Assembly: GCF_024502345.1 (NCBI RefSeq)
Contig: NZ_JALDNN010000001.1
Length of the DNA stretch: 64,000 bases
Source: Escherichia coli
Lineage (GTDB): Bacteria > Pseudomonadota > Gammaproteobacteria > Enterobacterales > Enterobacteriaceae
Direction: 5' to 3' (one strand)
Under the pieces are notes generated by a model. The model was not told where the DNA came from, did no database searches, and saw nothing but the letters and a program-made list of their open reading frames with translations. Shown here one piece after another: positions 5,431 to 52,590 of this stretch. How positions within the stretch are numbered: position 1 is the stretch's first letter; each line of letters begins with the position of its first letter. Made by a program: the position numbers and the translations under genes.

Positions 5431-5569
5431 ATTTCCACTTTCATGTAGCACAGTGTGCAGTCCTGCTCGTTTGCTGATTCCGCAAGACTGCCTGTTCTGC
5501 TATGATTGCCTTTATCCGTGGGCAATTTTCCACCCCCATTTCAATAAGTTTCAAGAGGTTATTTCACTC

Positions 5570-6100
5570 ATGGCTATCACTGGCATCTTTTTCGGCAGCG
5601 ACACCGGTAATACCGAAAATATCGCAAAAATGATTCAAAAACAGCTTGGTAAAGACGTTGCCGATGTCCATGACATTGCAAAAAGCAGCAAAGAAGATCT
5701 GGAAGCTTATGACATTCTGCTGCTGGGCATCCCAACCTGGTATTACGGCGAAGCGCAGTGTGACTGGGATGACTTCTTCCCGACTCTCGAAGAGATTGAT
5801 TTCAATGGCAAACTGGTTGCGCTGTTTGGTTGTGGTGACCAGGAAGATTACGCCGAATATTTCTGCGACGCATTGGGCACCATCCGCGACATCATTGAAC
5901 CGCGCGGTGCAACCATCGTTGGTCACTGGCCAACTGCGGGCTATCATTTCGAAGCATCAAAAGGTCTGGCAGATGACGACCACTTTGTCGGTCTGGCTAT
6001 CGACGAAGACCGTCAGCCGGAACTGACCGCTGAACGTGTAGAAAAATGGGTTAAACAGATTTCTGAAGAGTTGCATCTCGACGAAATTCTTAATGCCTGA
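5570..6100 (+). CDS. fldA: Flavodoxin 1
   Basis: 176 aa from internal Met ([16 protein letters not shown]...); flavodoxin FMN-binding signature. Confidence 0.95.
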
Positions 6101-6103
6101 TGT

Positions 6104-6133
6104 GATGCGGCGTAGACTCATGTCTACGCCGCA
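6104..6133 (+). terminator. Hairpin downstream of fldA (partial terminator or processing site)
   Basis: gatgcggcgtagac / gtctacgccgcatt inverted repeat immediately after fldA stop. Confidence 0.5.
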
Positions 6134-6305
6134 TTAATAGATAATGCCAATCAAAATAATTGCTACAAATTTGTAACTTTTGCTGTTGTACCTGTACAAT
6201 GTCCCGGTGTTCAAGTGGCCTTGCCGTTGTAAATGTAAGCTGTGCCACGTTTTTATTAACAATATTTGCCAGGGACTTGTGGTTTTCATTTAGGCGTGGC
6301 AATTC

Positions 6306-8702: not shown

Positions 8703-9103
8703 GGGTTAATCCTCTTTGACGTATAAATTGCTGCACCAAAGGTGAACAGCGAAAAAATAAAAATTAAAAAAGTAGCGTTGAGAAAAGTCTCGCTGACTAC
8801 AGGAACAGACTATTTTTCGCGGCGCGAATTATCAATCTCTTTCTGTAACCAGAATGTAAGAACATGAGCAACCGCACATATTTTGATGATTTTTGTTACA
8901 AGGCTTAAGTTTGCGGTTGAAAGGCTTGCAGAAGAATAAAAGCGTGAATTTCCAGCAAGATGAAAGCGGTTACATTTTATTTAATTATGTTTTGTTATTT
9001 TAAATTTATTTTATGGATAAATTGCGAAGCGGAATTAATTCGTGAAGAAAAGCAGAAAAAAACGCCGCAGACCGCGGCGTTTAGGATTGTTTGCATGTTT
9101 CTT

Positions 9104-17464: not shown

Positions 17465-17515
17465 ATACCACCCACGTCTGCGGACGTGGTTGGCTCTGAT
17501 GACAAACGCCAAACT

Positions 17516-17614
17516 GCCTGATGCGCTACGCTTATCAGGCCTACGCAGCTCCTGCAATATATTGAATTTTCATGCTTTTGTAGGCCGGATAAGGCGTTCA
17601 CGCCGCATCCGGCA
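17516..17614. repeat. REP/BIME element (Z REP, IHF-like spacer, inverted Y REP)
   Basis: Reverse-complement copy of the element at 9104-9201. Confidence 0.85.
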
Positions 17615-17860
17615 TGAACAAATCGCACTTTATCAGCAATTTGGCCCCCGTAAAATATAACCATTCAATAAAACCCGCTAAAAATTATCGATTCATCAAT
17701 AAATACATCCTCACACCAGACCCTTTTTCACCAATCGACAATCACCATTACGTTTTTTATTTTTTCACCGCCAAATCGCTTGCGCACAGTGCTGCTTTGC
17801 GGCATTTTTTTAAACAAGCAAACACAACAAGCAACAAATACCAGGTTAACGGAGAAGGTT

Positions 17861-19525
17861 ATGTGTTCAATTTTTGGCGTATTCGATATCAAAACAGACG
17901 CAGTTGAGCTGCGTAAGAAAGCACTCGAGCTGTCACGCCTGATGCGTCATCGTGGCCCGGACTGGTCCGGTATTTATGCCAGCGATAACGCCATTCTCGC
18001 TCACGAACGTCTGTCAATTGTTGACGTTAACGCGGGGGCGCAACCTCTCTACAACCAACAAAAAACCCACGTACTGGCGGTAAACGGTGAAATCTACAAC
18101 CACCAGGCATTGCGCGCTGAATATGGCGATCGTTATCAGTTCCAGACAGGGTCTGACTGTGAAGTGATCCTCGCGCTGTATCAGGAAAAAGGGCCGGAAT
18201 TTCTCGACGACTTGCAGGGCATGTTTGCCTTTGCCCTGTACGACAGCGAAAAAGATGCCTACCTGATTGGTCGCGACCATCTGGGGATCATCCCACTGTA
18301 TATGGGCTATGACGAACACGGTCAGCTGTATGTGGCCTCAGAAATGAAAGCCCTGGTGCCAGTTTGCCGCACGATTAAAGAGTTCCCGGCGGGGAGCTAT
18401 TTGTGGAGTCAGGACGGCGAAATCCGTTCTTATTATCATCGCGACTGGTTCGACTACGATGCGGTGAAAGATAACGTGACCGACAAAAACGAGCTGCGTC
18501 AGGCACTGGAAGATTCCGTTAAAAGCCATCTGATGTCTGATGTGCCTTACGGTGTGCTGCTCTCGGGTGGTCTGGATTCCTCAATTATTTCCGCGATCAC
18601 CAAGAAATACGCCGCCCGTCGCGTGGAAGATCAGGAACGCTCTGAAGCCTGGTGGCCGCAATTACACTCCTTTGCTGTAGGTCTGCCGGGTTCACCGGAT
18701 CTGAAAGCAGCCCAGGAAGTGGCAAACCATCTGGGCACGGTGCATCACGAAATTCACTTCACTGTACAGGAAGGTCTGGATGCCATCCGCGACGTGATTT
18801 ACCACATCGAAACTTATGATGTGACCACAATTCGCGCTTCAACACCGATGTATTTAATGTCGCGTAAGATCAAGGCGATGGGCATTAAAATGGTGCTGTC
18901 CGGTGAAGGTTCTGATGAAGTGTTTGGCGGTTATCTTTACTTCCATAAAGCGCCCAACGCTAAAGAACTGCATGAAGAGACGGTGCGTAAACTGCTGGCC
19001 CTGCATATGTATGACTGCGCGCGCGCCAACAAAGCGATGTCCGCCTGGGGCGTGGAAGCGCGCGTTCCGTTCCTCGACAAAAAATTCCTTGATGTGGCGA
19101 TGCGTATTAACCCACAGGATAAAATGTGCGGCAACGGCAAAATGGAAAAACACATCCTGCGTGAATGTTTTGAAGCGTATCTGCCTGCAAGCGTGGCCTG
19201 GCGGCAGAAAGAGCAGTTCTCCGATGGCGTCGGTTACAGTTGGATCGACACTCTGAAAGAAGTGGCGGCGCAGCAGGTTTCTGATCAACAGCTGGAAACT
19301 GCCCGCTTCCGCTTCCCGTACAACACGCCGACGTCCAAAGAAGCGTATCTGTACCGGGAGATCTTTGAAGAACTGTTCCCACTTCCGAGCGCCGCTGAGT
19401 GCGTACCGGGCGGTCCTTCCGTCGCGTGTTCTTCAGCTAAAGCGATCGAATGGGATGAAGCGTTCAAAAAAATGGACGATCCATCTGGTCGTGCGGTTGG
19501 TGTTCACCAGTCGGCATATAAGTAA
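17861..19525 (+). CDS. asnB: Asparagine synthetase B (glutamine-hydrolysing)
   Basis: 554 aa from internal Met; N-terminal nucleophile Cys (MCSIFG); SGGLDSS PP-loop. Confidence 0.95.
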   Translation: MCSIFGVFDIKTDAVELRKKALELSRLMRHRGPDWSGIYASDNAILAHERLSIVDVNAGAQPLYNQQKTHVLAVNGEIYNHQALRAEYGDRYQFQTGSDCEVILALYQEKGPEFLDDLQGMFAFALYDSEKDAYLIGRDHLGIIPLYMGYDEHGQLYVASEMKALVPVCRTIKEFPAGSYLWSQDGEIRSYYHRDWFDYDAVKDNVTDKNELRQALEDSVKSHLMSDVPYGVLLSGGLDSSIISAITKKYAARRVEDQERSEAWWPQLHSFAVGLPGSPDLKAAQEVANHLGTVHHEIHFTVQEGLDAIRDVIYHIETYDVTTIRASTPMYLMSRKIKAMGIKMVLSGEGSDEVFGGYLYFHKAPNAKELHEETVRKLLALHMYDCARANKAMSAWGVEARVPFLDKKFLDVAMRINPQDKMCGNGKMEKHILRECFEAYLPASVAWRQKEQFSDGVGYSWIDTLKEVAAQQVSDQQLETARFRFPYNTPTSKEAYLYREIFEELFPLPSAAECVPGGPSVACSSAKAIEWDEAFKKMDDPSGRAVGVHQSAYK

Positions 19526-19533
19526 GAAATGCG

Positions 19534-19568
19534 AAACAGCCCCGGTGAAATCCGGGGCTGTTTCAATT
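19534..19568 (+). terminator. Intrinsic terminator after asnB
   Basis: aaacagccccgg-tgaaa-tccggggctgttt hairpin followed by T-containing tail. Confidence 0.75.
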
Positions 19569-19836
19569 ATTGAGGTGCCTGTTGATTCTGATATGCAGTA
19601 AGGAAATGTTCCGGGTTTGCCACATCACTGTTTGACAACTCATCACTGTAGGCCAGTATTTCATAGATTAATTTCCCACCACTATTGTTGAATTCCGAAT
19701 TTCATCCTGTATGACAAAAGAATGGCTGTAGGGTGGGGAAAAAACACAAAGTAAACAATAATTGACGAATATAGCGCCACGCTGTTCGCAACCTAACCAA
19801 ACAGTCACTTTCGAGCAATTTTCCTTGAAAAAGAGG

Positions 19837-19866
19837 TTGACGCTGCAAGGCTCTATACGCATAATG
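19837..19866 (+). promoter_or_regulatory. Sigma-70 promoter of the tRNA operon, with GC-rich discriminator
   Basis: TTGACG (-35), ~17-bp spacer, CATAAT (-10), then gcgccccgc; AT-rich UP-like sequence upstream. Confidence 0.5.
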
Positions 19867-19905
19867 CGCCCCGCAACGCCGATAAGGTATCGCGAAAAAA
19901 AAGAT

Positions 19906-19982
19906 GGCTACGTAGCTCAGTTGGTTAGAGCACATCACTCATAATGATGGGGTCACAGGTTCGAATCCCGTCGTAGCCACCA
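19906..19982 (+). tRNA. metT: tRNA-Met (CAU), elongator
   Basis: 77 nt; ggctacgtagctcag...CCA; anticodon loop ctCATaa. Confidence 0.95.
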
Positions 19983-19991
19983 TCTTTTTTT

Positions 19992-20076
19992 GCGGGAGTG
20001 GCGAAATTGGTAGACGCACCAGATTTAGGTTCTGGCGCCGCAAGGTGTGCGAGTTCAAGTCTCGCCTCCCGCACCA
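19992..20076 (+). tRNA. leuW: tRNA-Leu (UAG)
   Basis: 85 nt with long variable arm; anticodon loop ttTAGgt; ends CCA. Confidence 0.93.
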
Positions 20077-20099
20077 TTCACCAGAAAGCGTTGTACGGA

Positions 20100-20174
20100 T
20101 GGGGTATCGCCAAGCGGTAAGGCACCGGTTTTTGATACCGGCATTCCCTGGTTCGAATCCAGGTACCCCAGCCA
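20100..20174 (+). tRNA. glnU: tRNA-Gln (UUG)
   Basis: 75 nt; tggggtatcgccaagcggtaagg...; anticodon loop ttTTGat. Confidence 0.93.
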
Positions 20175-20208
20175 TCTTCTTCGAGTAAGCGGTTCACCGC
20201 CCGGTTAT

Positions 20209-20283
20209 TGGGGTATCGCCAAGCGGTAAGGCACCGGTTTTTGATACCGGCATTCCCTGGTTCGAATCCAGGTACCCCAGCCA
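20209..20283 (+). tRNA. glnW: tRNA-Gln (UUG)
   Basis: 75 nt; identical to the copy at 20100-20174. Confidence 0.93.
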
Positions 20284-20298
20284 TCGAAGAAACAATCT

Positions 20299-20375
20299 GG
20301 CTACGTAGCTCAGTTGGTTAGAGCACATCACTCATAATGATGGGGTCACAGGTTCGAATCCCGTCGTAGCCACCA
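20299..20375 (+). tRNA. metU: tRNA-Met (CAU), elongator
   Basis: 77 nt; identical to the copy at 19906-19982. Confidence 0.93.
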
Positions 20376-20423
20376 AATTCTGAATGTGTCGAATACGTTC
20401 GGCAAATTCAAAAACCAATTTGT

Positions 20424-20498
20424 TGGGGTATCGCCAAGCGGTAAGGCACCGGATTCTGATTCCGGCATTCCGAGGTTCGAATCCTCGTACCCCAGCCA
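20424..20498 (+). tRNA. glnV: tRNA-Gln (CUG)
   Basis: 75 nt; anticodon loop ttCTGat (wild-type, not the supE amber-suppressor allele). Confidence 0.93.
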
Positions 20499-20535
20499 AT
20501 TTATTCAAGACGCTTACATCGTAAGTGCACCCAGT

Positions 20536-20610
20536 TGGGGTATCGCCAAGCGGTAAGGCACCGGATTCTGATTCCGGCATTCCGAGGTTCGAATCCTCGT
20601 ACCCCAGCCA
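20536..20610 (+). tRNA. glnX: tRNA-Gln (CUG)
   Basis: 75 nt; identical to the copy at 20424-20498. Confidence 0.93.
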
Positions 20611-20614
20611 CATT

Positions 20615-20645
20615 AAAAAAGCTCGCTTCGGCGAGCTTTTTGCTT
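20615..20645 (+). terminator. Intrinsic terminator of the tRNA operon
   Basis: aaaaaagctcgc-ttcg-gcgagctttttgctttt. Confidence 0.85.
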
Positions 20646-20664
20646 TTCTGCGTTCATTCAATGT

Positions 20665-20735
20665 CGAATGCGATGTTGACACGTCTTATCCTTCAATGTC
20701 GGATGCGACGCTGCCGCGTCTTATCCGACCTACGG
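20665..20735. repeat. Degenerate REP-like palindromic units
   Basis: gtcgaatgcgatgttgacacgtcttatcc...gtcggatgcgacgctgccgcgtcttatccgacctac. Confidence 0.5.
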
Positions 20736-20763
20736 TTGGCACGCATCCGGCAATGTTGTAAGG

Positions 20764-21939
20764 CTACAACCCTAACGCATATTTCAGCGCCTGACGTTTC
20801 AACACGCCAGCACGCTCTGCCGCCATTAACCCGAGATTACGCACAAAACGCAGCGGCGGCAGATTATTACTGAATCCGGCATAAAACAGATCCATACCAC
20901 TTTGCATAATGAAGTTATCCGCCATGCGCCGCATCTGGTAACGCTTGAGGACAGGATAACTGGCCCACGCTTCACCGTAGCTGCGGGCATTCACCAGAAC
21001 ATCAATCAGGGCATCGACATCACGATAACCAAGATTCACCCCCTGCCCCGCCAGCGGATGGATGGTATGCGCGGCATCGCCCACCAGCGCAAGCCCCGGC
21101 TGCACATACTGCAACGCATGTCGGCGCGTCAGCGGAAACGCACCAGCGGCAAGCGGTGTAACGTAACCCAGACGCGACGGGAAATGCTTCGCGATTTCCG
21201 CCTGGAGTTGCGCCATATTCATATTCTGCAACTGGCGAATACGCACCGGAGAGTCATACCACACCAGCGATGCCCAGTTATCAAACAACGGCAGAAACGC
21301 ACGCGGTCCGTCCGGGGTAAATTGCTGCCAGGTGCTGTCGCCGGGATCGTTCTCACACTGTACGCTAATCAACATACACGACTGCGCATACTGCCAGGCA
21401 TGAACGCCAATTCCCGCCATCTGCCGCACCTGCGAATTTGCTCCGTCAGCACCAATCACCAGCTTCGCGCGAATCACTTCACCGCCCTTCAGTTCCAGCT
21501 CCTGAAGATCATTATCTCGATGTAATGCAATCAGCGAGCCTAGCACACGTAACGTTACTTTCGGATGAGCTTCCAGCGCCTGCCACAATGCCTGTTGCAG
21601 GACGGTGTTTTCCACCATATAGCCAAGCAGCGGCAGCTTAAGTTCAGCGGCGTCAAACATCACATGCGCCGTTTCCCACTCCCACGTTTCCAGTCTGCGG
21701 TAAGGATGGCAACGCATAGCCTGTACTGCATCCCAGACCCCTAACCCTTTAAGCAATGATACCGATGCGGCGCTGATCGCCGAGATCCGCACGTCCGGTT
21801 GGCTATCAGCGACAAACGGTGCAGGTTCTGCGTGCTCGATCACCGTTACCGAAAATCCGTGCTGTGCCAGCCCCAGCGCCAGTGCGCCGCCGACCATTCC
21901 TCCGCCGACAATGGCAATTTCCGTTGGTTGATTTGTCAT
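20764..21939 (-). CDS. ubiF: Ubiquinone biosynthesis FAD-dependent monooxygenase UbiF
   Basis: 391 aa; N-terminal GxGxxG (IVGGGMVGG) FAD-binding motif. Confidence 0.9.
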   Translation of the reverse strand: MTNQPTEIAIVGGGMVGGALALGLAQHGFSVTVIEHAEPAPFVADSQPDVRISAISAASVSLLKGLGVWDAVQAMRCHPYRRLETWEWETAHVMFDAAELKLPLLGYMVENTVLQQALWQALEAHPKVTLRVLGSLIALHRDNDLQELELKGGEVIRAKLVIGADGANSQVRQMAGIGVHAWQYAQSCMLISVQCENDPGDSTWQQFTPDGPRAFLPLFDNWASLVWYDSPVRIRQLQNMNMAQLQAEIAKHFPSRLGYVTPLAAGAFPLTRRHALQYVQPGLALVGDAAHTIHPLAGQGVNLGYRDVDALIDVLVNARSYGEAWASYPVLKRYQMRRMADNFIMQSGMDLFYAGFSNNLPPLRFVRNLGLMAAERAGVLKRQALKYALGL

Positions 21940-26158: not shown

Positions 26159-27697
26159 ATGGCTTTTGCCTCATTAATTGAACGCCAGCGCATTCGCCTG
26201 CTGCTGGCGTTATTATTCGGTGCCTGCGGAACGCTGGCCTTCTCTCCTTACGACGTCTGGCCTGCGGCGATTATTTCGCTGATGGGGCTTCAGGCGTTGA
26301 CCTTTAACCGTCGCCCACTCCAGTCTGCCGCTATTGGCTTTTGCTGGGGATTTGGCCTCTTTGGCAGCGGTATTAACTGGGTCTATGTCAGCATCGCGAC
26401 CTTTGGCGGGATGCCTGGCCCGGTTAACATCTTCCTGGTGGTGCTGCTGGCGGCGTATTTGTCGCTGTATACCGGACTGTTTGCTGGCGTGCTGTCGCGT
26501 CTGTGGCCGAAAACCACCTGGCTGCGCGTGGCGATTGCCGCCCCTTCTCTCTGGCAAGTGACCGAGTTTCTGCGCGGTTGGGTACTGACAGGCTTCCCGT
26601 GGTTACAGTTCGGCTATAGCCAGATTGATGGCCCGTTAAAAGGGCTGGCACCGATAATGGGCGTGGAAGCCATTAACTTCCTGCTGATGATGGTTAGTGG
26701 CCTGCTGGCACTGGCGTTGGTTAAACGCAACTGGCGTCCGCTGGTGGTGGCCGTCGTGCTGTTTGCCCTACCCTTCCCGCTGCGTTACATCCAATGGTTT
26801 ACCCCGCAACCGGAGAAAACCATTCAGGTTTCGATGGTTCAGGGCGATATTCCGCAATCACTGAAATGGGATGGAGATCAGCTTCTTAATACGCTGAAGA
26901 TTTACTACAACGCAACGGCTCCGCTGATGGGCAAATCATCGTTGATTATCTGGCCGGAGTCGGCGATAACCGATCTGGAAATTAATCAGCAACCGTTCCT
27001 CAAAGCACTGGACGGTGAGTTGCGCGATAAAGGTAGCTCGCTGGTAACCGGGATTGTCGACGCGCGTCTCAATAAGCAGAACCGCTACGATACCTACAAC
27101 ACCATCATCACACTGGGTAAAGGTGCACCGTACAGCTACGAATCAGCCGATCGCTATAACAAAAACCATCTGGTGCCGTTTGGCGAGTTTGTCCCGCTGG
27201 AGTCGATTCTGCGTCCGTTAGCACCGTTCTTTGATCTGCCGATGTCGTCGTTCAGCCGTGGGCCATATATCCAGCCGCCGCTGTCAGTAAATGGTATTGA
27301 GCTTACTGCGGCTATTTGCTACGAGATCATTCTCGGCGAGCAAGTGCGCGATAACTTCCGCCCGGATACCGACTATCTGCTGACTATCTCCAACGATGCG
27401 TGGTTTGGTAAATCTATTGGTCCATGGCAACACTTCCAGATGGCGCGAATGCGTGCGCTGGAGCTGGCGCGCCCACTGTTGCGCAGCACCAACAACGGCA
27501 TTACGGCGGTGATTGGCCCGCAGGGTGAGATTCAGGCGATGATCCCGCAGTTCACCCGCGAGGTGTTAACCACTAATGTGACACCGACCACCGGACTCAC
27601 ACCGTATGCACGTACCGGCAACTGGCCACTGTGGGTGCTGACGGCACTGTTTGGTTTTGCCGCTGTGTTGATGAGTCTGCGTCAGCGACGTAAATAA
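26159..27697 (+). CDS. lnt: Apolipoprotein N-acyltransferase
   Basis: 512 aa; N-terminal transmembrane segments followed by a CN-hydrolase domain. Confidence 0.95.
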
Positions 27698-27796
27698 TCC
27701 CTTCTTAGCGTGCCGGAATACATCCCATATTTCGGCACGCTCACCGGATGCGGCATCAGTGCGTTATCCGGATAACAATATTCTCCTATCCAACTT

Positions 27797-27812
27797 TGGC
27801 ACATCTATTGCT
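27797..27812 (+). promoter_or_regulatory. Candidate sigma-54 (-24/-12) promoter upstream of gltI
   Basis: TGGCACatctaTTGCT, with GG and GC separated by 10 nt; from memory gltIJKL is nitrogen (NtrC) regulated. Confidence 0.45.
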
Positions 27813-28093
27813 TTGTTATACAAGGCAAAGCTTGAACCAGCATCAGTACAACCCGGTTGCACCACAGCAATCCACCGGTAGCACCAAAAGAGTGCATTTT
27901 AAGAATTTTGCTTCGGAATGGTGCGGCGCACCTCCCAAATATAAACAATAAAACAGCAATATCTTTACATTTAGCCAAACTAAATGTTACCTAACAGGTA
28001 CAACACTGCACAATAAAGTTGCAGATGATAACAACACAAACACTCACAACGGGTATCCATGCGTTCTTAACGCAGAAGATAAAGGAGTTGGAT

Positions 28094-29002
28094 ATGCAAT
28101 TACGTAAACCTGCCACAGCAATCCTGGCCCTGGCGCTTTCCGCAGGACTGGCACAGGCAGATGACGCAGCCCCGGCAGCGGGCAGTACGCTGGACAAAAT
28201 CGCCAAAAACGGTGTGATTGTCGTCGGTCACCGTGAATCTTCAGTACCTTTCTCTTATTACGACAATCAGCAAAAAGTGGTGGGTTACTCGCAGGATTAC
28301 TCCAACGCCATTGTTAAAGCAGTGAAAAAGAAACTCAACAAACCGGATTTGCAGGTAAAACTGATTCCGATTACCTCACAAAACCGTATTCCGCTGCTGC
28401 AAAACGGCACTTTTGATTTTGAATGTGGTTCTACCACCAACAACGTCGAACGCCAAAAACAGGCGGCTTTCTCTGACACTATTTTCGTGGTCGGTACGCG
28501 CCTGTTGACCAAAAAGGGTGGCGATATCAAAGACTTCGCCGATCTGAAAGGCAAAGCCGTAGTCGTCACTTCCGGCACTACCTCTGAAGTTTTGCTCAAC
28601 AAACTGAATGAAGAGCAAAAAATGAATATGCGAATTATCAGCGCCAAAGATCACGGTGACTCTTTCCGTACCCTGGAAAGCGGTCGTGCCGTTGCCTTTA
28701 TGATGGATGATGCTCTGCTGGCCGGTGAACGTGCGAAAGCGAAGAAACCAGACAACTGGGATATCGTCGGCAAGCCGCAGTCTCAGGAAGCCTATGGTTG
28801 CATGTTGCGTAAAGACGATCCGCAGTTCAAAAAGCTGATGGATGACACTATCGCTCAGGTGCAGACCTCCGGTGAAGCGGAAAAATGGTTTGATAAATGG
28901 TTCAAAAATCCCATTCCGCCGAAAAACCTGAACATGAATTTCGAACTGTCAGACGAAATGAAAGCACTGTTCAAAGAACCGAATGACAAAGCACTGAACT
29001 AA
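28094..29002 (+). CDS. gltI: Glutamate/aspartate ABC transporter periplasmic binding protein
   Basis: 302 aa from internal Met with aaggag RBS; signal peptide ...AGLAQA. Confidence 0.93.
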   Translation: MQLRKPATAILALALSAGLAQADDAAPAAGSTLDKIAKNGVIVVGHRESSVPFSYYDNQQKVVGYSQDYSNAIVKAVKKKLNKPDLQVKLIPITSQNRIPLLQNGTFDFECGSTTNNVERQKQAAFSDTIFVVGTRLLTKKGGDIKDFADLKGKAVVVTSGTTSEVLLNKLNEEQKMNMRIISAKDHGDSFRTLESGRAVAFMMDDALLAGERAKAKKPDNWDIVGKPQSQEAYGCMLRKDDPQFKKLMDDTIAQVQTSGEAEKWFDKWFKNPIPPKNLNMNFELSDEMKALFKEPNDKALN

Positions 29003-29004
29003 TT

Positions 29005-29152
29005 ACAAGAACCAGGGGCGGAAATTCTAGCCCTCTCGATTGTTACGTAGCACGGACAGACTATACGCCTGATGGTCGTTCCCCATCGGGCCTGAAAACC
29101 GCAATACGCTGGGTAACAATCTTCGAGGGTAGCAGTTAACGCTGCTACCCTC
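29005..29152 (+). ncRNA. sroC: SroC sRNA (gltI-gltJ intergenic, processed from the gltIJKL transcript; GcvB sponge)
   Basis: Position matches the known sroC locus; ends in hairpin ggtagcagc-gttaacgctgctaccc plus T-run (29117-29152); boundaries approximate. Confidence 0.6.
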
Positions 29153-29171
29153 TTTTTTCTGGAGTAGATTT

Positions 29172-32426: not shown

Positions 32427-32816
32427 TCAATCAACTGTGACTTTTTTCCCAAAATCCTCTTCTGCAATCCAGGTTAAAAACGATGTATCGGCGCCACCTA
32501 ATTTAACAACGCGATCATATAACATCATAACACCAAAATCATGTTCGATATCCCAGGAGCATGAGAACTCGAAACCAATATAAGGCTGGCCATTATTATG
32601 CACCGATAAAATATGTATCGCTAATGGTGATAACAACTTTGAAAAATCCTCTTGAGTTCCAACATCTGGCATATACAACTCTTTTTCTTCCTCGTCATAG
32701 TCATATTGCCCTTGTAAATCAGGATATTTTTTCATAAGTTCCGAAAGAATGGATGCCAAAATTTCAGATTGATGAACAATAATATACTGTAACCCAGTCT
32801 TATGGCATTCGCTCAT
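32427..32816 (-). CDS. Hypothetical acidic protein (129 aa), function unknown
   Basis: Intact ORF in an AT-rich island; by my count 23 acidic versus 9 basic residues; no signal peptide or TM segment; no motif I recognise. Confidence 0.6.
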   Translation of the reverse strand: MSECHKTGLQYIIVHQSEILASILSELMKKYPDLQGQYDYDEEEKELYMPDVGTQEDFSKLLSPLAIHILSVHNNGQPYIGFEFSCSWDIEHDFGVMMLYDRVVKLGGADTSFLTWIAEEDFGKKVTVD

Positions 32817-32855
32817 ACATGAAGTTGGATCATCGCCACCAAGGCTGTAGTATAA

Positions 32856-33377
32856 TTATTCAGCCTCATCACCGAAAAAACTCACCCAGGATGATAAGAC
32901 TATTGGTTCACAGACTCGGTCATCCTCATACTCTGGTTCCGACAATATTTTAGGTTCATCAAGATGACGGTTAAAAAACTCCATACATGCACGGTTACGG
33001 GTAAAGATATATTCTTTATTTTCATCATAACTACGTTGAAAATAGTTAAGCGCATCATCCTCTGCTCCACACGCATAAAGGCACTCACCGCGATAGTAAT
33101 TAACAATATAGTATTCATTTATTTTTCTGTTGACATGGTTATCACCTATAGTTAGCCAACGCTTAACATTTTCAATGTCTTTTAACTTAATATATTCATT
33201 CACCATCCTGCCAATAATGATATTGGCATCATGTATTTTATATTTTTCCTCATCCATGATGCTCCACTGACATTCAATAAATTCAATAATATCCGTTGAT
33301 GTAATATTGCTATTTTTGAGCATCGAGCGGTCCAGAAAACTATAAATCTCTGCTACTTTCTCTAACGCATTTGACAT
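32856..33377 (-). CDS. Hypothetical acidic protein (173 aa), function unknown
   Basis: Intact ORF with aagaggga RBS before ATG; by my count ~34 acidic versus ~20 basic residues; five Cys; no motif I recognise; 39-bp gap to the downstream ORF suggests an operon. Confidence 0.6.
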   Translation of the reverse strand: MSNALEKVAEIYSFLDRSMLKNSNITSTDIIEFIECQWSIMDEEKYKIHDANIIIGRMVNEYIKLKDIENVKRWLTIGDNHVNRKINEYYIVNYYRGECLYACGAEDDALNYFQRSYDENKEYIFTRNRACMEFFNRHLDEPKILSEPEYEDDRVCEPIVLSSWVSFFGDEAE

Positions 33378-33641
33378 AACATCCCTCTTAAATCAATCTA
33401 AAACTAATGCTAAATATTTAAAATATTGATGATTCGGTAGAATGCATATTAAAAGGAGGAAGAGCGCCTGGCTCTCCCTCACGTGCTGTTAAAAAAGTTG
33501 AACTAAAAATGATAGATAGTAACAACGCTACGCTGACAGCCACTCTTCCCATGTCGACATTCCTGAATGTATTCCCTTTTTCTTCATTCCAACAGAAATG
33601 GTATTCGACATAAATCGCTAACAGCGTGCGAAATCATACTA

Positions 33642-34124
33642 TTACGGCTCGAACGGGCGTCTCTGGAACTGGTCATGACCACATTTCGGGCATAGCGTCA
33701 GCACTTCCGGTGTGTAGATCGGGAGATGGAAGTGACATTTCTCGCAGACCAGATTTCCCAGCCCGACCACTTCTCCGCTGTGATAAACCCCATGATGATT
33801 GAGGTCCTGGAAAACTTCGCGCCATTCAAGCTGCGTTTTATCGGTGATGTCTGCCAGCTCCTGCCACAAGCTTTCTTTAATCACCCGCATAAAGACGCTG
33901 TCAGATTCTTCTTTCAGGCTCTCTTCATAGCTCATGGCGAACTCTTCCAGGTCACGTCTGACAGCTCGCGTCAGCTCATCGACCTCGGTTCGCGTTAACT
34001 CCCCTGTTTTTATTACGCGCTCGCGCGCCTGTTCCACCAGTGCGTCGATATCACGTTCGCCATTGCGCAGGCGTTCGCTCAGTGACGCAACCAGTTCACG
34101 GTAATATTGAGCAACCTTGTTCAT
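33642..34124 (-). CDS. ybeL: Conserved protein YbeL (DUF1451, zinc-ribbon C-terminus)
   Basis: 160 aa; C-terminal CxxC...CxxC pairs (CEKCHFH...CPKCGH). Confidence 0.88.
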   Translation of the reverse strand: MNKVAQYYRELVASLSERLRNGERDIDALVEQARERVIKTGELTRTEVDELTRAVRRDLEEFAMSYEESLKEESDSVFMRVIKESLWQELADITDKTQLEWREVFQDLNHHGVYHSGEVVGLGNLVCEKCHFHLPIYTPEVLTLCPKCGHDQFQRRPFEP

Positions 34125-51596: not shown

Positions 51597-51626
51597 AAAA
51601 AAAAACCCGCTGATTAAGCGGGTTTT
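51597..51626. terminator. Bidirectional intrinsic terminator between crcB and cspE
   Basis: aaaaaaaaacccgc-tgattaa-gcgggtttt. Confidence 0.8.
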
Positions 51627-51645
51627 GAATTCTTGCTGACGTATC

Positions 51646-51855
51646 TTACAGAGCGATTACGTTTGCAGCAGAAGGGCCTTTGGCACCGTTAGTGATTTCG
51701 AACTCTACGCGCTGACCTTCAGCAAGAGTTTTAAAACCATTAGTCTGGATTGCAGAGAAGTGTACGAACACGTCTTTGCTGCCGTCTTCCGGAGTAATGA
51801 AACCGAATCCTTTGGACTCATTAAACCACTTAACGTTACCTTTAATCTTAGACAT
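51646..51855 (-). CDS. cspE: Cold-shock-domain protein CspE
   Basis: 69 aa from internal Met; KGFGFI (RNP1) and VFVHF (RNP2) motifs. Confidence 0.95.
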
Positions 51856-52029
51856 CAAAATTACCTTTACATGAAAAATAGACACAAATGCTGTGTCGGT
51901 TACCAGTACACCAATTGTGGTACGCTTTGTCCAGTGCAACTTTACTAAAAAGTGATAAAAGTCGCGTTATTTTTGATGTTACTTATTTTAGCTATTGATT
52001 TTAAAGAAGTTACTAAAACTTCATTTGTC

Positions 52030-52590
52030 TCAAAACTGAAAGCGCATCCAGGCAAAGTACACATTGCCATTGTTGTAGGTACCCGGAATGTAGGTCATCT
52101 GAAAAGTCACTGGGCCATAACCCACGGAGGCCAATGGCAGTAGAACCGGGAGAGGGATGTAATTCCAGTTATCGCGTGCCGTTACGCCAGCGGTGAATCC
52201 CAGACCTAAATGAAAATTTTCATCCGCCAGCGGTCGCCAGGTACTTTCCCATCCGTATCCGGCAATCGGTTCCCATTTGTTCCACGAGTCCTTAAATGCC
52301 ATGGCATACAGGCCATGCCAGTTTCCTTTTTCATCCCAACGCGACAGGCCAAAACCGCCACCCCACGGTCGCTCGTTATAGCGATCGGTTTTTTCTTTGT
52401 CGTAAGCGAAACGTGCATGCCAGGTGATGGCAGGAATATATAAATCATAATGTTCAGGCTGTTGCCAGGTTTGTGCAATATTTTCTCTAAACGTTGTCAT
52501 CCACTCATCTGCGTTAGCAAAAACTTTACCAACGCTGATTAACTGAATAAAAACAAAGGAAAAGATAGCGACATATTTACTCACGTTCAT
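52030..52590 (-). CDS. pagP: Lipid A palmitoyltransferase PagP
   Basis: 186 aa from internal Met; signal peptide; small beta-barrel. Confidence 0.92.

Follow-up and report, generated by a model that had tools for sequence, protein, structure and literature searches.

The tRNA gene cluster at 19837-20645 of the window, as the whole 64-kb stretch of Escherichia coli DNA analysed here is called, is almost certainly the metT seven-tRNA operon in its reference configuration, transcribed and processed as in K-12. Nothing was found against the identification of the operon and, because the configuration is that of the reference, the locus is an already known textbook locus. The span that an earlier note on this DNA had given for the cluster runs exactly from the -35 hexamer through the terminator. 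The original sequence of the operon is that of Nakajima, Ozeki and Shimura (Cell 1981;23:239), as cited in PMC9514646.

Exactly seven tRNA genes were found by ARAGORN in the 64-kb window, all on the + strand between 19906 and 20610, and all seven were matched by the Rfam tRNA covariance model with 57.6-71.1 bits against a gathering score of 29. The first gene is metT for the elongator tRNA-Met(CAU) at 19906-19982, followed by leuW for tRNA-Leu(UAG) at 19992-20076 and glnU for tRNA-Gln(UUG) at 20100-20174; these three were assigned by ARAGORN, Rfam and their identity with the K-12 genes. The four others were assigned by ARAGORN, Rfam and comparison of the copies: glnW at 20209-20283 is a second tRNA-Gln(UUG) gene with the sequence of glnU, metU at 20299-20375 is a second elongator tRNA-Met(CAU) gene with the sequence of metT, glnV at 20424-20498 encodes tRNA-Gln(CUG) with the wild-type anticodon, and glnX at 20536-20610 has the sequence of glnV. 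The order Met-Leu-Gln(UUG)x2-Met-Gln(CUG)x2 and the anticodons, as read in the earlier note, were confirmed by ARAGORN and additionally by Rfam.

The copies that had been described as pairwise identical are so base for base, in the three pairs metT and metU, glnU and glnW, and glnV and glnX. Between glnU and glnV, which stand for the Gln(UUG) and the Gln(CUG) type, 7 of the 75 positions differ. In the output of the repeat finder the similarity did not extend beyond the mature tRNAs, and the spacers between the genes, which are 9, 23, 34, 15, 48 and 37 nt long, are mutually unrelated. Two open reading frames that overlap the tRNA genes, at 20332-20682 on the - strand and at 20535-20873 on the + strand, were dismissed as spurious.

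When positions 19450-20850 were aligned with MG1655, single-base indels were the sole gaps. The promoter, the leader, all seven genes, the terminator and the REP region are identical base for base to the MG1655 locus (b0673-b0664), and gene order, anticodons and the asnB and ubiF flanks are likewise those of the K-12 operon. Five differences were counted in the operon, all of them in the two distal spacers: the metU-glnV spacer has three (an extra A besides two substitutions) and the glnV-glnX spacer has two. A difference of these five spacer bases only implies no functional change.

Promoter, leader and terminator

A consensus promoter scan of the + strand from 19400 to 21000 gave one sigma-70-like site at 19837-19865, with TTGACG and CATAAT separated by 17 nt; for this simple consensus matcher the count was no better than chance, since 1.9 sites were expected from shuffles. 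The -35 hexamer TTGACG (19837-19842, + strand) is identical in K-12. The -10 hexamer CATAAT (19860-19865, + strand) was also seen in an alignment of 19 genera that covered 110 nt upstream of metT and continued into leuW. It is directly followed by the discriminator GCGCCCC (19866-19872, + strand), where 7 of 7 bases are G or C and which is invariant in the 19 genera. Also invariant were AAAAA at 19828-19832, upstream of the -35 hexamer, TTGAC at 19837-19841 and GCATAAT at 19859-19865, whereas the spacer between -35 and -10 and the DNA farther upstream varied freely in the same genera. The A/T-rich tract adjoining the -35 hexamer (19815-19836, + strand), in which the invariant A-tract lies, resembles an UP element and is regarded as a putative one. 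The conservation was not confined to the hexamers: a block of 29 nt at 19859-19887, GCATAATGCGCCCCGCAACGCCGATAAGG, which takes in the -10 hexamer and the discriminator and continues for ~15 bases into the transcript, is nearly invariant from Escherichia to Haemophilus in the 19 genera. Since the scan count of 1 lies below the shuffle mean of 1.9, the promoter is supported much more strongly by the conservation across genera than by the scan, and it is also backed by the identity with K-12. The single upstream promoter with a GC-rich discriminator that had been proposed from the sequence was borne out by these three lines.

The earlier note had further called the promoter stringent-type, which holds as a resemblance: the discriminator GCGCCCCGC is that of tyrT. 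The discriminator concept was developed on the tyrT (tRNA-Tyr) promoter, the classical one among the stringently controlled stable-RNA promoters, a class that also takes in the rrn P1 type. In K-12 tyrT, as in the metT operon, GCGCCCCGC stands straight after the -10 hexamer and CGATAAGG follows some bases on, so that tyrT reads TATGAT-GCGCCCCGC-TTCC-CGATAAGG and the metT operon CATAAT-GCGCCCCGC-AACGC-CGATAAGG, with a gap between the shared blocks of 4 nt in tyrT and 5 nt in the metT operon. The two differ in the -35 and -10 hexamers, the spacer and the downstream genes. Because its G+C discriminator is identical to that of tyrT, the metT promoter is very probably under ppGpp/DksA control, i.e. 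stringent and growth-rate control. A direct ppGpp experiment on the metT promoter was not found in the searchable literature. The transcription start is placed at about 19872-19873, as suggested by the spacing from the -10 hexamer, by the forward primer at 19872 of a precursor made in vitro, and by analogy with the start of the tyrT transcript.

That the cluster is instead divided into several transcription units, started from extra internal promoters, is quite improbable. Weak promoters might in theory fit into the spacers of 34-48 nt, and the scan was a simple consensus matcher, but it gave no second promoter-like site on the + strand of 19400-21000, and K-12 northern blots showed a full-length transcript with the 5' leader, the seven tRNAs and the terminator, with intermediates that all keep the leader (PMC2241853). 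One upstream promoter is the preferred reading.

The 5' leader (19873-19905, + strand), delimited from the sequence, the alignment and the comparison with tyrT, contains the conserved CGATAAGG box at 19880-19887 and a run of eight A at 19895-19902. In a K-12 RNase P mutant a leader probe picks up the unprocessed metT (PMC2241853). The conservation runs deeper into the transcript than a discriminator requires: the CC-GAUAA-GG box at +8 to +16, invariant from Escherichia onwards and still close to invariant in Haemophilus, is also present in tyrT.

An inverted repeat of 18 nt with 89% complementarity was detected by the repeat finder between 19890-19907 and 19980-19997. In it the leader sequence CGCG-A8-GAT-GG pairs with a stretch that runs from the CCA end of metT through the T-rich 9-nt spacer into leuW, of which it takes in the first three bases. 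For most Enterobacterales and Pasteurellaceae the leader/trailer duplex energies were better than those of shuffled leaders, where it has to be considered that runs of A and T pair trivially and that the species are not independent. The complementarity was kept where the sequence had changed, as in Haemophilus (GCAAATT with AATTTGC) and in Necropsobacter (CGCAGATAT with ATATTTGCG). RNAalifold, run on 32 sequences, did not call the leader-trailer helix and recovered only parts of the metT cloverleaf, and the leader alone folded no better than shuffles (z = -0.28). Since RNAalifold missed the helix, the evidence for it is the comparison of duplex energies with shuffles, species by species; the helix may form and is taken as a lead, not as a finding. 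That the CGATAAGG box and the helix are uncharacterised functional elements is a speculative reading, to which we give a low probability. If it were true, the box or the helix could tune promoter escape, the stability of the precursor or the order of RNase P cleavage. As the sequence is that of K-12, only such a functional reading of the leader would be new, and the older literature may already treat it.

The operon ends at a Rho-independent terminator at 20616-20650 (hairpin 20616-20641, + strand), recognised by scan and folding, with an 11-bp stem, a UUCG loop and a T tract. It folded with -17.9 kcal/mol (z = -4.2) and none of 200 shuffles was as good, in agreement with the strong terminator proposed before; in K-12 it was characterised experimentally (PMC2241853).

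Downstream follow REP elements at 20654-20735 (+ strand), which were identified by the repeat finder and a pattern search and consist of two tandem 35-nt units (20654-20723) with a core at 20702-20725. The REP core pattern with a variable gap occurred three times in the window, one of them at this core, against 0 expected from shuffles, whereas a stricter consensus with fixed spacing gave no match. The unit at 20654-20688 is degenerate according to the repeat finder. The core matches the imperfect REP/BIME palindrome GATGCG(R)CG(Y)...(R)CG(Y)CTTATC, and the region lies between genes, after a convergent gene end.

Distribution and copy number

The locus was searched in 5426 complete E. coli genomes. 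The 1.5 kb around it had matches in 5424 of them, where the annotation was asnB, tRNA-Met twice, tRNA-Leu, tRNA-Gln four times and ubiF. With the operon alone as the query (19837-20652), at least 80% of the query was found in one place in 5355 genomes and a match at 99% identity or more in 5290; one genome, of strain S56, has a 100% identical copy. The leuW gene with its two spacers was present in 5413 genomes at 5435 places, nearly always once and up to three times in some, and a leuW match was absent altogether in 13 of the 5426 genomes.

Two strains with fewer genes were analysed. In E. coli 536 (NC_008253.1; extracted locus 5930-6150) only Met-Gln(CUG)-Gln(CUG) is found, leuW and both Gln(UUG) genes are missing at the locus, and one Met gene alone connects the metT leader with the metU-glnV spacer. 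As judged from this junction, the form corresponds to a precise recombination between metT and metU. Because the lost tRNAs have their sole copies here and are essential in K-12 (PMC11480407), the form may be an artefact of assembly or cloning; if the deletion is real instead, it is a surprising one. The form in strain 2013C-4225 comprises six genes, among them just one Gln(CUG).

E. coli GPEC1042 (extracted locus 1568-2005) has about 430 bp extra between asnB and the metT promoter, with a hypothetical open reading frame of 438 nt. This reading frame occurs in some E. coli and is present neither in the window nor in K-12.

For other genera, one genome per species was scanned with a 30-mer of leuW, which gave at least 120 loci, and ARAGORN was run on 40 among the 80 matches listed. 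In these 40 loci the seven-gene order was the same in Escherichia albertii, two Citrobacter and two Enterobacter. Eight genes, three of them Gln(CUG), are present in Superficieibacter, and six genes were found in Pantoea, Pseudescherichia, Acerihabitans, Xenorhabdus, Photorhabdus and Moellerella. Most Pasteurellaceae have the four genes Met-Leu-Gln-Gln, with no second Met and in most cases without Gln(CUG), and in Aeromonas, Proteus and Budvicia the order and the repeats are rearranged. From Escherichia to Haemophilus, the Met-Leu(UAG)-Gln clusters of other Gammaproteobacteria keep the promoter/leader block as well as the core order Met-Leu(UAG)-Gln(UUG), but differ from the seven genes of the window in copy number. 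The order shared across these genera shows that the cluster is old. Unequal recombination makes the number of copies drift; the form in the window is the standard one of Escherichia.

In E. albertii (extracted locus 8782-8887) the spacer between leuW and glnU is 104 nt long instead of 23 nt, which is an insertion inside the operon.

It is extremely unlikely that the locus in the window is itself a copy-number variant, produced by recombination between the identical copies. Such variants exist, as seen in E. coli 536, in strain 2013C-4225, in other genera with six or eight genes and in the genomes with up to three leuW matches. Against this reading, the genes, their order and the spacer lengths in the window are those of K-12 save for a 1-base indel. 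A comparison of the spacers with a reference strain, named in the earlier note as a way to detect changes in copy number, was run against K-12 and revealed none, and the alignment with MG1655 rules the variant out.

Identity of the tRNAs and genomic surroundings

The CAU anticodon by itself cannot tell the elongator, initiator and Ile2 classes apart, and ARAGORN, which goes by the anticodon, names the Met genes from it, so the elongator class needs further evidence. In initiator tRNAs position 1 is unpaired with position 72, unlike the two Met genes, in which G1 is paired with C72. Both CAU genes are in addition 100% identical to metT and metU of K-12 and are elongator tRNA-Met genes for this reason; the two K-12 genes are identical elongator tRNA-Met genes (PMC6265465). 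The Gln(CUG) genes had been described as wild-type, and ARAGORN indeed read the anticodon of glnV and glnX as CTG, not CTA as in the supE-type CUA. An initiator tRNA-fMet, a lysidine-modified tRNA-Ile2 or a suppressor allele of a Gln gene can practically be dismissed, being ruled out by the identity with the K-12 genes.

There is next to no likelihood that an island or prophage has used the cluster as its attachment site in this genome: tRNA genes are common integration sites and some E. coli carry the additional 438-nt reading frame between asnB and metT, but the stretch from asnB to ubiF is collinear with K-12 without an insertion, asnB and ubiF adjoin the operon, and the repeat finder gave downstream of it only REP units and no direct repeat of a tRNA 3' end. 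The absence of an integrase or island had been noted before and holds, as no indel larger than 1 bp was found from the 3' end of asnB to the 3' end of ubiF in comparison with K-12. Of the marks of a genomic island, neither an integrase nor foreign DNA nor a duplicated tRNA 3' end was present. The attachment-site reading is ruled out for the window by this collinearity.

The upstream neighbour is asnB for asparagine synthetase B (17861-19525, + strand), assigned from its reading frame, which ends at 19525, and from the collinear annotation of E. coli KSC207 and MG1655. It is followed by its own terminator hairpin at 19532-19565 (+ strand) with a 13-bp stem (-27.3 kcal/mol, z = -7.4). Downstream and convergent lies ubiF (20764-21939, - strand), assigned from its reading frame and the same annotations. 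The REP-like sequence followed by ubiF that had been reported after the operon was thus recovered by the REP pattern and the annotation of the neighbours. The synteny nagD-asnB-[operon]-ubiF-miaB is common to the window, K-12 and KSC207, and the larger neighbourhood nagBACD-asnB-[operon]-ubiF-miaB-ybeZYX-lnt is collinear with KSC207 at 98.5-99% identity.

Several other features were observed in the window. Between nagD and asnB, at 17491-17651, there are about 140 bases more than in KSC207, which hold a REP core at 17588-17609 (- strand) and an Rfam match to the ES036 sRNA at 17537-17579 (- strand). At 1-1840 the end of kdpD and kdpE adjoin pgm, and speF-potE, which lie beside pgm in KSC207, are missing; this kdpE-pgm junction occurs in 360 of the 5426 genomes. 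At 27694-27849 the window is without the gene of about 2 kb, annotated as rhomboid family protease, that is present in KSC207 between lnt and gltI. Between rihA and ybeL, at 32427-34124, two small reading frames on the minus strand replace the genes hscC-djlC-ybeU-ybeT-djlB-ybeR-ybeQ of K-12 and KSC207. The one at 32427-32816 (- strand) encodes a DUF6985 protein (Pfam E = 5e-23) and the one at 32856-33377 (- strand) had no Pfam match; the arrangement is shared by only 12 of the 5426 complete E. coli genomes. Two RNA elements scored above the Rfam gathering score, the sroC sRNA at 28998-29160 (+ strand) after gltI with 170.8 bits and a cspA-type thermoregulator 5' UTR at 51598-52040 (- strand), presumably that of cspE, with 124.5 bits. 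Both are to be expected at these positions in E. coli.

Processing of the transcript and significance

The processing of the operon transcript has been studied in K-12, whose operon has the same sequence save for the five spacer bases. Removal of the terminator and the cuts downstream of metU are mainly the work of RNase E. The five upstream tRNAs are released from one another by RNase P, whose activity is poor as long as the terminator is attached; RNase T, PH and D complete the 3' ends (PMC2241853). In vitro RNase E cleaves the precursor efficiently (PMC3985628), and the primers used for that precursor match the window exactly at 19872-19889 (forward) and 20642-20662 (reverse). The unit could not be deleted from K-12 without complementation and is essential there, because no gene for the anticodons CAU (elongator), UAG, UUG or CUG lies outside it (PMC11480407). 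Through the identity with K-12, we infer a single transcript, the same processing pathway and essentiality for the present strain as well.

According to this proposal, one strong sigma-70 promoter, composed of the A-tract, TTGACG, the 17-nt spacer, CATAAT and GCGCCCC, would drive the whole operon, and its G+C discriminator, like that of tyrT, would put transcription under ppGpp/DksA control. A polycistronic precursor of ~770 nt would end at the intrinsic terminator. RNase E would act first, taking off the terminator and cutting downstream of metU, after which RNase P would cut at every mature 5' end and free the tRNAs, and 3' exonucleases would trim back to the encoded CCA. The duplicated genes would go back to old tandem duplications that were kept identical within the mature tRNA sequence only, and homologous recombination between the copies would now and then raise or lower the copy number.

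The locus is of use mainly as a quality check, since a description made from the letters alone proved correct and complete for this textbook case. Nothing about the operon itself is new; the minor value added here is the view across the population and across genera, together with the strong conservation of promoter and leader. The classical suppressors supE and supB also lie in the metT operon. Nearly all E. coli have the seven-gene form, and recombination variants are rare. The operon is important because it is essential, because E. coli obtains four of its tRNA species from nowhere else, and because it serves as a model for the processing of tRNA precursors.
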